64,000 nucleotides of DNA from NCBI GenBank assembly GCA_964016885.1, contig OZ024741.1, positions 378,634,001 to 378,698,000 on the forward strand. Direction: 5' to 3'. The notes under the pieces were generated by a model. The model did no database searches. It was given only the letters and a program-made list of their open reading frames with translations, and was not told the origin of the DNA. Source of the DNA: Eledone cirrhosa (taxonomy: Eukaryota). Shown piece after piece: positions 429 through 64,000 of this stretch; within the stretch, counting starts at the first letter, position 1, and every line of letters starts with the position of its first letter. The position numbers were made by a program, and so were the translations under genes.

Positions 429-429
429 A

Positions 430-1500
430 GTTATAGGAATAAACAAAGAGTGCTTAGAAATACATTGTTTTATTAGCTAACAGTGTTTCATCCATACACC
501 ATGGCAGGAATCTTCAGAGCCTATAAACGTGAGTATATCAATAGTTGCATGCTCCATCGAGCTGCGTTACGAGAACAAGGTTAAATGATCAGCAGGGGGT
601 CCCGAGGCTTGCGCTATATGGAAAAAGACATAATACAAGAGGCACATAATGTCATAAAATGTCTTATGAATTTAAAAAAAAAAAAATAAAAAAAAAAAAT
701 AAAAAAAAAAAAATAAAAAATAAAAAATAAAAAAAAAAAATAAAAAAAAAAAATAAAAAATAAAAAATAAAAAATAAAAAATATAAAATTACACCAAACA
801 TTTATCACTTAGATGGTGCAATATATGATAAAGAGGCTGGGAGATGGTAGCATGAGTGAGGTTATTACTCAGCATGATCAGAAACAATCAGAAAATATAA
901 GAAAAAAAAATAAAAGAAGAAACTCGCATGTTCGTAATAAAACACACAAATACACCCTCACACAAACACTCAAACATACACATTTTATTTTTATTTTTTT
1001 ATTATTATGTTTTGGTTATTTTCTTATATTTTCTGATTCTTTCTGATAAAGCTGAGTAATACCCTCACTCATCCCTTATAACCCTATCCCAACCTCTTTA
1101 TCATATATTGCACCATCTGATTGATACATTTTTGGTGTAATTTTTAATTTTTAATTTTTAATTTTTGATTTTTAATTTTTTAAATTTTTAAGACATTTAT
1201 GACAGTATGTGCATCATGTATTATGTCTTTTACCATATAGCGCTAGCCCCTGGACCACCCTGCTGGTCATTTGACCTTGTTCTGTTGACGCAGCTCGATT
1301 GAGCATGCAACTACTGATATACTCATGTTTATAGGCTCTGAAGATTCCTGCCATGGTGTATGGATGAAACACTGTTATCTAACTAATAAAACAATATATT
1401 TCTAAGCAATCTTTGGTTCTTCCTATAAGTATAACGGCTCTGTAGTATACTAGTTATCCTACATTGAGCTAAAACAACACTGTCATACCAAGGGTAATAT
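430..1500. mobile_element. Non-coding fold-back element (inverted arms ~430-906 / ~1017-1430) of PLE-tail type
   Basis: Arms are diverged reverse complements (e.g. GTTTCATCCATACACCATGGCAGGAATCTTCAGAGCC at ~486 vs GGCTCTGAAGATTCCTGCCATGGTGTATGGATGAAAC at ~1334). The left arm abuts (TA)n; the right arm carries an extra tail. Confidence 0.8.
1335..1378 (+). ncRNA. Minimal type I hammerhead ribozyme motif (mirror copy 476-520 on minus)
   Basis: gct-CTGAAGA-ttcc...ggat-GAAAC-act-GTT-a; the mirror copy keeps the gct/agc stem I; AATAAA follows. Confidence 0.7.
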
Positions 1501-2049
1501 ATCTACATGTCTAGGAATACTGATATAATTGTCAACGAAATATATATATATATATATATATATAAAAATAAAGATGCGAAGGCATGGTATACATTTCCGA
1601 TCATTTTAATCCCGACATATGTTTCAAAAAGAGATAGATCGATCATGTAACCATGATCGATTATCACTGATCTCGTCAGGTGAAAATGAATTGTTTTCAA
1701 ATCCTTGATATGAGGGAGAAAATTAACTGTGTTCATTCACAGAGTTTAGTCCCCGATATGAAGATCAATCAGTCAGAACACGGCGACTGCTATCGTCCTC
1801 AGTTAGTCTCATAAAACAATCAATTCCCACAGAAGCTGTAAAAGACGCTGGACATCAATCAAATCTGTAGAATTACAGTCGGTCACAGTTAATGTTAGTG
1901 GGTGCACACACACTAACATATACATGACGCGAGGTCAAAGAAAAACAAATATATACACATACCAACACAGCATCAGATCTGTAGAACTATAGACGGTCAC
2001 AGTTAGTGGGAGTGAGTACACACACACACCGACACTAGGTTACATCATT

Positions 2050-61017: not shown

Positions 61018-61781
61018 TTGCGAAACAACAGGTTGTCTGGATGATTGGTAGTTATTTTCTTATTTTTTCTTAAATTGAGACAAGCGAACCCAATTGTTTA
61101 TAATTAGTAATCTTTTCATCTTAGCGAATCAGGTCCCTTACGATTTGAACACACATATATATATATGTCTGTGTTCGTTTTTCTTTTATATACTATTATA
61201 ATATACGACTCAGACATATCTCTTTCTTAGAGTTATTTTATTGTAATAGACTATTTTGAGTTACTAACTCAATATATACCATTCATATATTCGGCTCCGT
61301 TAATTTGTTGACCTATTTCAAATGTCGAATAAACCTGGCTGCTATTTTTAGTGGTGTAGGTTTGTGAGACACGCTAGGATGCCATGTGCGGTATTTTATA
61401 TATTTTATATATAGCATACTTAGATGTGTCTAGCATACTAATTCATCATTCACTGATGAGTTTGGATTGGTATTTCTATTCACAATTAATTTTGCGAAAC
61501 AACAACAAGTTGTATGGCTGATTGGTAGTTACCACAATTCTGGTTTGTATTTATTTTCTTAATTTTGTTCTTAAATTGAGATAGCGAACCCAATTGTCTA
61601 TAATTAGTATTCTTTTCACCTTAGCGAATCAGGTTCCTTACGATTTGAACACATATATGTATATATCTGTGTTCGTTTTCCTTTTATATTCTATTATAAT
61701 ATACGGCTCAGAAATATCTCTTTCTTAGAGCTATTTTATTGTAATAGACTATTTTGAGTTCCTAACTCAATAATACCTTTG
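61018..61781 (+). mobile_element. Partial tandem hammerhead module (61018-61280 repeated at 61492-61778)
   Basis: CTGATGA (61453)...GAAAC-aacaacaagtt-GTA (61496-61514); GGCTC..GAGCTA hairpin at 61701-61733; ends in (TA)n. Confidence 0.7.
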
Positions 61782-64000
61782 ATATATATATATATATATA
61801 TATATATATATATATATATATATATATATATATATATATATATATATGTATGAATAGTGCTTTCTCTCCCCAATCCTTTCCATTTACTTCTCTTCTCACA
61901 CTCATCTCCATTTCTATTTCTCAATCTATATTCTGTTGAAGGACTATTATCTGACACTTTAAGGCTCTATTGAGAGTTAAACTAAGATGTATCTTCATTG
62001 TACTGTGTGGTTTTGTTGTGGTGTTTATCGATTATATGTTGCATACATATATCAATTTTGTGTGTAAACATGATTTGGTGATTTCCAACTTGTGATAAAT
62101 TTATAATATTTATGAATTTCTTTATAATGTGAGCTTTATTGAATTATACTAGTGAGCTGTTTTCGTCGGTGCAACTTTCTATCATTAATAATGTTAGCGA
62201 CAATATAAAATGATGCCAATATATTTGTATTTTAACTGATTTTAAGCATTGTTTTATGTGTGGTGGAACATATGTCATAATCGTAATTTAGATAAAAATA
62301 TTAACGACATATTGTAAGGTAGACACAATATAATAATTGCAATTTATAAGAATATTTATTAGATTTCCCGTGATTTTGTTTCATTATGAATTATTTTAAT
62401 GATATGAGAATTAATATGTGATATTTGAATCTTCAATGAAACCTTTACCTCCGATGTGATAAATTATCTTAATAAATACGAAGTCATCAGTCAATATATG
62501 TATTGGAAATTAATGTCTGTAAATGTCTATACAATTGAATACTAATTTTTAGTGACTCAAAGAGTCACATCGTAAATTATAACACACCAAAATTCTCTCA
62601 GCAGCTTAACATATATACTTGTCGACAACCGAACAAGAAAACATCTATCTATATGTGATAGCGAGGATACATTCCCAAAACCACAATCTGCCATCTTTGA
62701 AAATTATTGGAGATCTTGTTATATATAGTCCTAAATATCACTAAAAAATCAGAGGAAGCTAACAGGGAAATGCATATTCAATTTTCAACATATTTAGAGG
62801 TTACACAGTGATTAACTAATACTATTTTGGAAGCGGTCCCCGATGTTTGTGTGGCTGGTATAAAATGAAGCACCAATCGTTATTCAAGTTTTACTCTATT
62901 GTAATACACAACGTATGAATTTTGGGTGTATACATAAATTGAAAATATTTGAACGTTTGTTTGCTGATTCATATCTGAACAAGTGTAATTGATTTCCTAG
63001 GCGTTTGGACATTTAATCAATGTTTTTCAACTTAGTAACGAAGTTATGAAATTCAACGTAAACGTTTCAAATATATATCAATAACATTGGCAATAAGAAC
63101 GTGTGTAGATACGCACGAGTAAATATTTTTCCCATCAAGTTTCTTAATTAAAATTCTATGAATTAATATTCTGTAAATTAAAATTCAAAACTAGAAAATT
63201 ATATAATTTGAATAAAATTCCATAACTTCTATAGCATTCTATGAATTAAAATCTATATAACTGACTTTCGGTCACAATCAGCGAGAAATTATCCTGTAAT
63301 GTTATGTTCGACGCATGTAAATATATATTCTTATTGCAATCAGATTTTTTTCGCGGAATAAAGGTATAACGGAGCTATTGTTATGTACGATTACTGAATG
63401 GGTTTTTGTGTCAATCAATATCCAAGTAAATGTTGTGAATTTAGATTTGGCAGACGTCAATACTATTGTATGTTTTTTTTTTTTAATTCAATTTCAGATT
63501 AACTGTGATCGATCAAATTTACAACCAGACTCTTTTCTCTCACAATTTTTTATGATGGATTACATTTTGCTATCCATATTTACACTTCCAAAATTGGAAA
63601 TTGTAAATTCTTTGATATTTTCCTGGCCTTTCTAGTATTGACAAATTAACTGACTCTAGCTTTCTTTTTTGTTTGGATCCGCAACATCCATATGCGGGTC
63701 ATGATACGGGAAATATAGGCTGCATTGTTCCAGTGACGTAGTTGCTATTTATGCATGTGGAAGGTGTATATAGACATTATATCATTGTTCCGAGTTTACT
63801 GTTTTTATTGGAGTTATATTAGCAGTCTGTCATTAGATTATATAACATAATTTGAATATTTATCACAACAATATCATTGTGGTTGAGTGATGATATACAC
63901 ACATTCTGATGAAGATCCAATTAGATCTGAGAATCGATGAAAGGTATTTATCACTTTCTCAATTTAGAGGGAAATTCGTATTTTCTGGAGTGTTTACACA

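Follow-up and report, generated by a model that had tools for sequence, protein, structure and literature searches.

Why do short repeat modules that differ in sequence end at (TA)n tracts beside the same small hairpin? This question is raised by a 64,000-nt stretch of the Eledone cirrhosa genome (contig OZ024741.1, positions 378,634,001 to 378,698,000; hereafter the window), which is dense in (TA)n tracts and lies in a 3.0-Gb animal genome. Self-comparison of the window revealed short modules arranged in pairs, either inverted or direct, and a preceding sequence-only reading had proposed that unrelated modules carrying hammerhead ribozymes have a common closing stem near their junctions with (TA)n. 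The modules are assigned here to the Hydra clade of Penelope-like elements (PLEs). Two copies of a bulged hairpin, each located 4–9 nt 3' of a UA-rich joining site, likely dock the reverse transcriptase (RT) for an internal start, a reading to which we give a probability of about 0.6; the docking of RT itself, and the function of the hairpin, are deduced from sequence features.

All seven main and four weaker hairpins named in the sequence-only reading were found in their places. The GGCTC/GAGCT stem it described exists, but two features had been missed, the variable upper stem and a bulge of 2 nt that precedes GAG: the motif consists of a UA-rich leader, (G/A)CUC, a variable upper stem with its loop, a 2-nt bulge starting with U, and GAG(C/U). 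At ~40824 there is indeed a hairpin, but its true stem is not GGCTC-based; it is GTTC/GAAC, starting at 40819. The upper-stem sequence after (G/A)CTC changes from module to module, and the bulge before GAG begins with T in the DNA. Between its two copies, module G shows a compensatory change, GCTC/GAGC versus ACTC/GAGT. Read along the RNA, the hammerhead comes first and is followed after about 40–60 nt by (TA)n junction site 1 and hairpin 1; a spacer then leads to site 2, hairpin 2 and the open reading frame (ORF). The hammerhead belongs to the pseudo-LTR (long terminal repeat; pLTR) of Hydra elements. The hairpins of the window are as follows.

1437..1469, + strand: hairpin 1 of family A, with a GCTC/GAGC lower stem, a TT bulge and a 5-bp upper stem.
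21358..21379, − strand: hairpin 1 with a TA bulge, 57 nt past the hammerhead cut site; outside the training set of our covariance model, yet recovered at E 0.0023.
21884..21907, − strand: hairpin 1 of module B, with a 3-nt bulge; the module ends at site 2 at 21851.
22364..22377, − strand: hairpin 2 (short) of module B; the site-2 ATATA at 22381-22385 immediately precedes it.
27035..27070, − strand: hairpin 1 of module C, a 671-nt direct repeat whose fused copy ends at site 1 at 26406 and has no inverted partner.
40819..40854, + strand: hairpin 1 of module D, GTTC/GAAC variant with a TA bulge; the fused copy ends at 41298.
42731..42769, + strand: hairpin 1 with a TC bulge, absent from the earlier list; its family precedes Hydra ORFs elsewhere.
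43761..43781, + strand: hairpin 1 of module E, with a TA bulge, 42 nt past the cut site.
45655..45700, − strand: hairpin 1 within a small head-to-head insertion that spans 45616-45915 (sites 2 and 1) and belongs to a family forming the pLTR of a full-length Hydra element.
47168..47201, + strand: hairpin 1 of module F, whose arms end at site 1 (45999) and site 2 (47326).
61208..61233, + strand: hairpin 1 of the first copy of module G, ACTC/GAGT, compensatory to the second copy.
61294..61330, + strand: hairpin 2 (degenerate) of module G, after the site-2 ATATAT.
61706..61731, + strand: hairpin 1 of the second copy of module G, GCTC/GAGC; the module ends at site 2 at 61781.

The pattern GGCTC-N3-30-GAGC occurs seven times in the window against 1.03 expected, a count reached by none of 100 shuffles; two of these seven matches are not stems of the sequence-only reading. 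The hammerheads proposed in that reading found no match at gathering score among 4227 Rfam families, nor did the hairpin; they are represented by a sole sub-threshold match in the window, Hammerhead_1 at 33156-33200, and by cores recognised by eye. A strict hammerhead descriptor missed most of those in the window, and cut sites were placed by eye; read in this way, two of the four hammerheads near a stem carry a core substitution. The distance from the cut site to the stem is 60, 57, 42 and 50 nt in these four cases, for which the earlier estimate of about 40–60 nt was meant and holds, while it is 82, 191 and 256 nt in three others.

Enrichment was then assessed outside the window, in 1.4 Mb from five contigs, where 578 complex flanks were kept of the 695 flanks of (TA)10+ junctions. 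The scored sequence was that lying past the junction in copies that read through, and families with simple-repeat read-through were dropped. Of 28 recurrent junction families, 12 fitted a descriptor with the 2-nt bulge (12 of 27 when restricted to read-through outside the window), compared with a mean of 0.3 and a maximum of 2 in shuffles. In controls on the 28 families, shifts of +25 nt and −60 nt gave 0 and 3 matches and the antisense strand gave 1; with a bulge of 1 or 3 nt, one match each was obtained. Among single junctions the descriptor was found in 14 of 101 (2.1 in shuffles), and in an added 0.2 Mb it was found in 8 of 29 families with a junction there (0.55 in shuffles), mostly families already sampled. 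Stems sought independently of junctions cluster 60–69 nt past the hammerhead GAAA (15 of 50).

Base pairing was evaluated in a test designed to avoid circularity, in which CTC close to the junction and the first T-N-GAG were the sole requirements; 32 of 140 families passed it (26 after de-replication). The outer pair and upper pairs 1–3 were Watson-Crick in 20, 19, 17 and 15 of the 26 families, compared with permuted means of 10.1, 8.9, 9.3 and 7.1; the observed pairing was reached in 0, 0, 8 and 6 of 10,000 permutations, although the families remain kin by descent. Genome-wide, ACTC..TTGAGT was counted 109,754 times against 26,669 for the reversed control (4.1-fold) and GCTC..TTGAGC 42,270 times against 2,293 (18-fold), whereas the mismatched ACTC..TTGAGC gave 11,668 against 15,511 (0.75-fold), the counts being dominated by high-copy families. 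The upper-stem cells of all read-through copies comprised 326 Watson-Crick, 27 G-T, 4 A-C and 60 other combinations (8 G-T versus 3 A-C counted per family), and this preference for G-U over A-C indicates that the structure matters on the sense strand. When 29 hairpins were aligned with MAFFT, the variable loops came out misaligned; covariance model R1 was built on 15 hand-picked rows, for which RNAalifold returned the identical bulged stem. Since the rows were hand-picked, the latter result is partly circular and is not the main evidence for covariation. The view of the hairpin as a conserved, covarying cross-family signal with a position fixed relative to the (TA)n junction, as the sequence-only reading had claimed, is supported: pairs covary between families and genome-wide, enrichment over shuffles is evident, and junctions cluster beside the stem.

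RCT often follows the stem, creating a self-complementary GAGYRCTC (L333-L345); this is strongest in the loci from other assemblies and is seen in 9 of 26 families here.

The junctions pile up at two sites. Within each family they are bimodal (in one example, 19 of 53 ends at offset 0 and 27 at offset 80). Site 1 is 4–9 nt 5' of the stem in 22 of 26 families, site 2 is 60–190 nt beyond site 1, and the read-through past site 2, where present, usually opens with a second, shorter hairpin. The one-sided 'tail' of PLEs is the stretch between sites 1 and 2, starting with hairpin 1; UA-rich patches elsewhere in tails are rarely used as junctions. The six pairs of fused and internal ends noted earlier are all real, but the accompanying picture of one site per element gives way to two. 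The statement that the fused copy stops at ATATA is half true, as head-to-head modules have both arms on (TA)n: the module at 429 has its second arm fused at 1539 and the module at 45998 at 47326, while the ends at 21850 and 61781 are second sites. Two head-to-head insertions at the start of the window illustrate the arrangement.

430..673, − strand: short arm of family A, with a hammerhead core at 486-517; it joins (TA)n 297-429 at site 1.
1182..1539, + strand: long arm of family A, the pLTR of a Hydra-clade element, with a hammerhead core at 1338-1369, a cut after 1376, the site-1 TATA at 1430-1433 and a 110-nt tail that joins (TA)n at site 2 (1540).
1565..2168: a different family inserted head to head, with site 1 at 1564, site 2 at 2168 and a decayed local hairpin; a copy of this family elsewhere sits behind a Hydra ORF.

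In 30 loci of family A, chosen with a hairpin-bearing query, the long arm ends at site 2, and the second arm, where present, ends at or near site 1 and never carries a second tail. In unselected blocks, same-family head-to-head pairs combined site 1 with site 2 in 50 of 52 cases, four pairs without a site label being excluded, and in 41 of 43 within 16 motif families. One could suppose instead that the hairpin is an RNA-processing signal, the RNA being cut or terminated just 5' of it and then primed conventionally from its UA-rich 3' end. Such processing would produce the same geometry and sense-strand bias, and RNA-seq read ends of the Poseidon element fall on both of its initiation sites, according to the available text of PMC11167929. 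However, two independently cut RNAs would not yield site 1 plus site 2 in 50 of 52 pairs, site-2 arms retain an intact site 1 and hairpin 1, and Poseidon starts internally on a defined RNA in vitro (same text); we regard this explanation as unlikely.

Among 23 hand-picked longer pairs, 12 were perfect palindromes, two had no arm, and nine had a spacer between the arms. The palindromes and the combination of sites 1 and 2 would both follow if only site 2 were primed and the cDNA then copied itself back to a boundary at hairpin 1, site 1 being a stop; PLE palindromes have been attributed to self-priming before (PMC3846280, in the text available). Of the alternatives, this one comes nearest to the boundary idea of the sequence-only reading. 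However, in seven of the nine spacer pairs (one of them unreliable and one from a non-Hydra family) the spacer continues the site-1 arm, the longer of the two, which holds sequence missing from the site-2 arm, and fold-back from site 2 cannot yield such a spacer. Moreover, site 1 ends without a partner exist, site 2 owns a hairpin, and the wobble bias points to the sense strand and not to the cDNA. Fold-back as the sole route is largely refuted, and we consider it very improbable. In one family, the arms agree at 35 or more of 40 positions in 11 of 15 insertions, a figure that has no between-insertion baseline.

Direct-repeat copies that end at site 1 without a partner arm are exemplified by module C and by a full-length copy at another locus (L315). 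They speak against a signal acting in DNA, where a hairpin extruded from the sense strand of an intermediate would lead the GIY-YIG/zinc-linker domain to cut the adjacent TA and so resolve the insertion; a loop ranging from ~4 to more than 60 nt and a fixed U-first bulge also appear more typical of a protein-binding site on RNA. Nevertheless, the tail is needed for recognition by the Penelope endonuclease (cited in PMC11167929), Craig et al. ascribed it to endonuclease-mediated resolution (PMC8557442), both as given in the text available, and single-stranded DNA tolerates G-T pairs too. A DNA-level role of this kind seems quite unlikely. As for the internal start, the sequence-only reading had proposed that AUAUA is the primer-annealing site. 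The overlap of the element ends with (TA)n is 0–5 nt, reaching at least 3 nt in 20 of 32 motif families and in 30 of 108 others (Fisher p 0.0006); a short UA overlap thus fits the proposal, an invariable ATATA does not.

A low-identity search exposed the probable autonomous partner. Behind second hairpins there is a 738-aa ORF, P0125, with a hammerhead core ~260 nt upstream. Its product carries RWR and DKT motifs (likewise present in family A ORFs, with RWK in a sister family), an alignment-conserved linker with CxCX5C (CNCRDRSKC), CxxC (CDLC) and CxH (CKH), as well as a GIY-YIG domain at the C terminus judged by eye to have no CCHH. Craig et al. (2021) described the Hydra clade as PLEs with a C-terminal endonuclease, diagnosed by an RWK-type N-terminal motif, DKT replacing DKG, CxCX5C, CxxC and CxH, and the absence of CCHH, with a single ORF of <3 kb, a canonical hammerhead in the pLTR and insertion into (TA)n (PMC8557442, text available). 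The layout found here, with a 738-aa ORF, an upstream hammerhead core and (TA)n junctions, agrees with this description. Judged by protein motifs and by the hairpin in published consensi, the modules are divergent Hydra-clade PLE ends and probable non-coding derivatives. They are therefore not unrelated, as had been thought, but divergent families of one clade, and sharing of the hairpin reflects conservation by descent.

Several motif families flank Hydra ORFs, with the second hairpin preceding the ORF. A hairpin starts at most 80 nt ahead of 11 of 15 distinct Hydra ORF starts (19 rows with 4 duplicates, one CA-repeat artefact scored as a miss, and the descriptor widened after two GCAC variants had been seen). 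For family A the second hairpin was predicted: a genome search past site 2 that specified only CTC..GAG returned five matches, against one in the control, and all five had a TATAACG leader, CC/GG upper pairs and a TT bulge followed by a Hydra ORF. In most ORF-bearing copies hairpin 2 ends ~10–40 nt ahead of the ATG, a position that would also suit a 5'-leader function in translation, export or stability, the UA-rich patches alone setting the junctions. Against this stand the retention of both hairpins in non-coding tandem units (modules B and G), the rare use of other UA-rich tail patches and the offset of 4–9 nt between junction and stem in 22 of 26 families, so that a leader function has only a slim chance of being correct.

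The genome is rich in intact ORFs of Hydra families, 96–99% identical (96,668 first-look candidates), and contains two intact Neptune families (41,146 candidates). The presence of intact ORFs in both clades is a likely mark of their recent activity, and the many near-identical Hydra ORFs mean that an active enzyme-RNA pair is at hand.

Outside E. cirrhosa, inspection by eye of the six published Hydra consensi (PMC8557442, File S7) revealed the exact stem after a TA-rich stretch in three: Hydra-2_Amil of a coral, and Hydra-2_Ajap and Hydra-1_Ajap of a sea cucumber, the last with two copies followed by ATG. The copepod consensus contains variants, the octopus consensus a partial match, and one consensus ends at site 1. 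A foreign set of 17 Hydra loci from other assemblies (65 kb; probably host DNA in microbial bins) was searched with covariance model R1, giving 19 matches at E <= 0.18, namely 4 training sequences, 1 copy of one of these and 14 new hairpins, while in 25 of 80 non-Hydra PLE loci (98 kb) none scored below E 3.1. All eight new matches inspected lie ~50–70 nt past the hammerhead GAAA, and in two of them a second hairpin is found just before the ATG. Fused copies within foreign loci terminate just 5' of the hairpin, and GCAC/GTGC in two loci is a compensatory change at the central pair. No relatives were found in viral contigs.

Several points weigh against the docking of RT by paired hairpins. The descriptor behind the 12 of 28 families was composed after inspection of the read-through output from outside the window. 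In held-out regions it matched only 1 of 16 first-seen junction families (0.5 in shuffles), two others being near misses because of one outer mismatch or the loop length, and when it was not anchored to junctions there was no excess of 2-nt bulges (1188 versus 961-1514). On foreign loci the fixed descriptor matched 7 of 17 Hydra and 2 of 27 other loci, three of the seven matches being chance hits in flanking DNA. Hand correction of two reference labels preceded the count of site 1 plus site 2 pairs, which had otherwise stood at 42 of 52, and the 12 perfect palindromes of 23 are explained equally well by fold-back. The overlap with (TA)n is just 0–2 nt in 12 of 32 motif families, and a linked Hydra ORF was found in none of the 3-13 copies each of modules B, B', C, D, E and G. 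Finally, one family (c4/c5, in L045 and other blocks), linked with a PLE ORF outside the Hydra clade, carries TTTC..CA-GAAA as a loose variant along with a 60-nt tail and keeps the site 1 plus site 2 rule in 8 of 8 pairs; Neptune-type families are two-sited as well. Since the rule holds in a non-Hydra family with a loose variant, it does not need the bulged hairpin, which can best be regarded as the answer of the Hydra clade to a step common to PLEs.

Between the hammerhead and site 1, AATAAA with a T-rich stretch behind it is present in the window (1370-1430) and in several families. Polyadenylation at this signal would remove the hairpins, and the template must then be a read-through, multimeric or circular RNA. 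For docking by two hairpins the following course could be proposed. A single uncut RNA, multimeric or circular, would carry two protomers, each bound to its own hairpin, and their GIY-YIG domains would nick a (TA)n tract on both strands. Each 3'-OH would pair with ~3–5 nt of the UA leader and be extended; the site-1 cDNA would run ahead, while the site-2 cDNA would copy the tail and follow. The two cDNAs could be joined head to head, or one alone could be completed to give a direct, 5'-truncated copy, and non-coding 0.5–0.7 kb tandem units with both hairpins would be copied in trans. Synthesis of the (TA)n tract by the RT itself, in the manner of telomerase, was considered as well. That the doubled, phylum-spanning motif loads two RT protomers on one RNA, so that both (TA)n strands are primed at once from two fixed internal registers, is a tentative extension which we hold at somewhat less than even odds. 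If true, it would explain at the molecular level both the head-to-head insertion and its one-sided tail, would be the recognition signal through which a PLE is hijacked by animal retrozymes, and would amount to a portable tag of ~35 nt directing any upstream RNA into (TA)n. RNA recognition and start choice by Penelope-like RTs, the closest relatives of telomerase, have been reconstituted for one element so far. The motif offers a concrete explanation of the long-known tail and a direct mutational test, in which the stem is broken, restored or moved, as well as a marker for assigning orphan hammerhead repeats to an autonomous partner and a covariance model for a PLE clade.

Head-to-head insertions, one-sided tails, hammerheads, (TA)n targeting and retrozymes are already known (PMC8557442, PMC3846280, PMC4209133, PMC7229834, bioRxiv 10.64898/2026.07.22.740005, in the text available). 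The families described here resemble the Hydra clade in protein diagnostics, pLTR hammerhead, (TA)n targeting, head-to-head and partial-tandem insertions and a tail at one end, but their tails are 60–190 nt instead of 30–40 nt and are bounded by two hairpin-marked sites (PMC8557442); the main text of that paper has neither 'hairpin' nor 'stem-loop', and its supplement text has no 'hairpin', 'stem-loop' or 'bulge'. For Poseidon PAc of Anolis, the available text of Frangieh et al. 2024 (PMC11167929) reports that, past the hammerhead, RT initiates internally at two positions, which define the tail; it extends both strands, requires RNA 3' of the start and is a predicted dimer. Two tail-defining start sites past the hammerhead and a stem-loop at the start are thus common to PAc and our families. 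The PAc start, however, lies inside an AC-rich stem-loop within the ORF; here the junction precedes a covarying bulged stem by 4–9 nt, both lying upstream of the ORF, the overlap with (TA)n is 0–5 nt, and the motif is common to families and phyla. The sequence-only reading had invoked homology-guided internal priming as reported for a PLE RT; the same text states the reverse, the start not being homologous to the cut target DNA.

Modules B, C, D and G are non-coding direct repeats of 487–671 nt, with 1.1–1.7 units each, hammerhead-like CTGAnGA..GAAA cores, long stem II regions and no Rfam match. In size (0.49–0.67 kb), lack of coding capacity and hammerhead-like core they look like non-LTR retrozymes, for which mobilisation by PLEs has been proposed; alternatively, they may be truncated tandems of Hydra pLTRs. 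The available retrozyme accounts name no RT-recognition signal (PMC7229834; bioRxiv 10.64898/2026.07.22.740005), and the hairpin pair is a candidate for it. A further parallel is the eel UnaL2 LINE (long interspersed element) and its SINE (short interspersed element), whose common bulged 3'-tail stem-loop is required for retrotransposition; the likeness consists in a conserved bulged stem beside the priming point, common to non-autonomous partners (PMC1636434, text available). Unlike that stem, the one found here is doubled, lies downstream of an internal site and belongs to a GIY-YIG PLE with a telomerase-related RT. In stringent LINEs, which are of the APE type, the stem sits within the RNA 3' tail, with the priming repeats downstream of it, and is copied. 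The telomerase template boundary element is situated 5' of the template, where it brings copying to a halt, and hepadnaviral epsilon is a bulged stem-loop with protein priming on its bulge. The hairpin is similar to both as a structured RNA that would fix an internal RT register, and to epsilon also as a bulged stem-loop. However, neither geometry fits, and the telomerase-boundary analogy of the sequence-only reading fails on this point: the hairpin lies on the 3' side of the junction, and the site-2-primed arm copies through it. In the literature searched, no conserved PLE cis-signal for RNA recognition or start was found, nor any description of the doubled hairpin with its fixed relation to both junctions, which closed-access papers, Repbase, figures or preprint supplements could hold.

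A Neptune-type RT was also considered as the partner of the modules. The window PLE of this type and two intact families (L281 and L285 types) are two-sited, with the motif partial or absent, and the candidate was rejected because Hydra ORFs were found behind the second hairpin. The Neptune-type element, which serves as an internal control, and the remaining PLE features of the window are listed below.

2247..7562, − strand: Neptune-type PLE with RT, C-terminal GIY-YIG and CX4CxxC linker; two (TA)n sites 41 nt apart and no canonical bulged hairpin.
33112..33200, − strand: canonical type I hammerhead with a site-1-like junction 52 nt further on; it probably forms the 3' end belonging to the Hydra ORF remnant 35063-35446 (− strand).
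35798..39460, + strand: broken Hydra ORF (35798-37921, 64% to P0125) with its 3' untranslated region (UTR), which ends on (TA)n at the P0125 family's site 1.

Neptune-type sites are 36–41 nt apart and ~28 nt before the ATG (window 7029-7085, − strand, and L281 type loci), and the tail holds a GTGT(A)/(T)ACAC hairpin, possibly a signal of that clade's own. In metagenome relatives (L171, L172, L180) two TA-rich patches past the hammerhead are each followed by a TCC..G.AC motif, the second just before the ATG. Hairpin-bearing non-coding units are joined to Neptune sequence with no (TA)n between them in two places, to a 3' UTR arm and to an RT fragment (window 22427-22686; L099:6065-6560). These chimeric joins suggest template switching between RNAs of different PLE clades, and they may also hint at trans-mobilisation of module B by a Neptune RT.

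Other repeats were noted as well. A 190-nt family with internal inverted repeats occurs at 15929-17095, 37481-37670, 49887-50039 and 58361-58550 of the window, one copy interrupting a Hydra ORF remnant. The region 11965-14761 (− strand) is a remnant of a LINE-like element, with a weak Exo_endo_phos match and a long low-complexity frame. Elsewhere in the genome, a 466-nt hammerhead unit forms a tandem array of ~30 copies (G000:C1:5,738,000-5,752,500; L264-L280), and the search pattern for this unit gave 15,983 genome-wide matches, double counts included, against 2 in the control.

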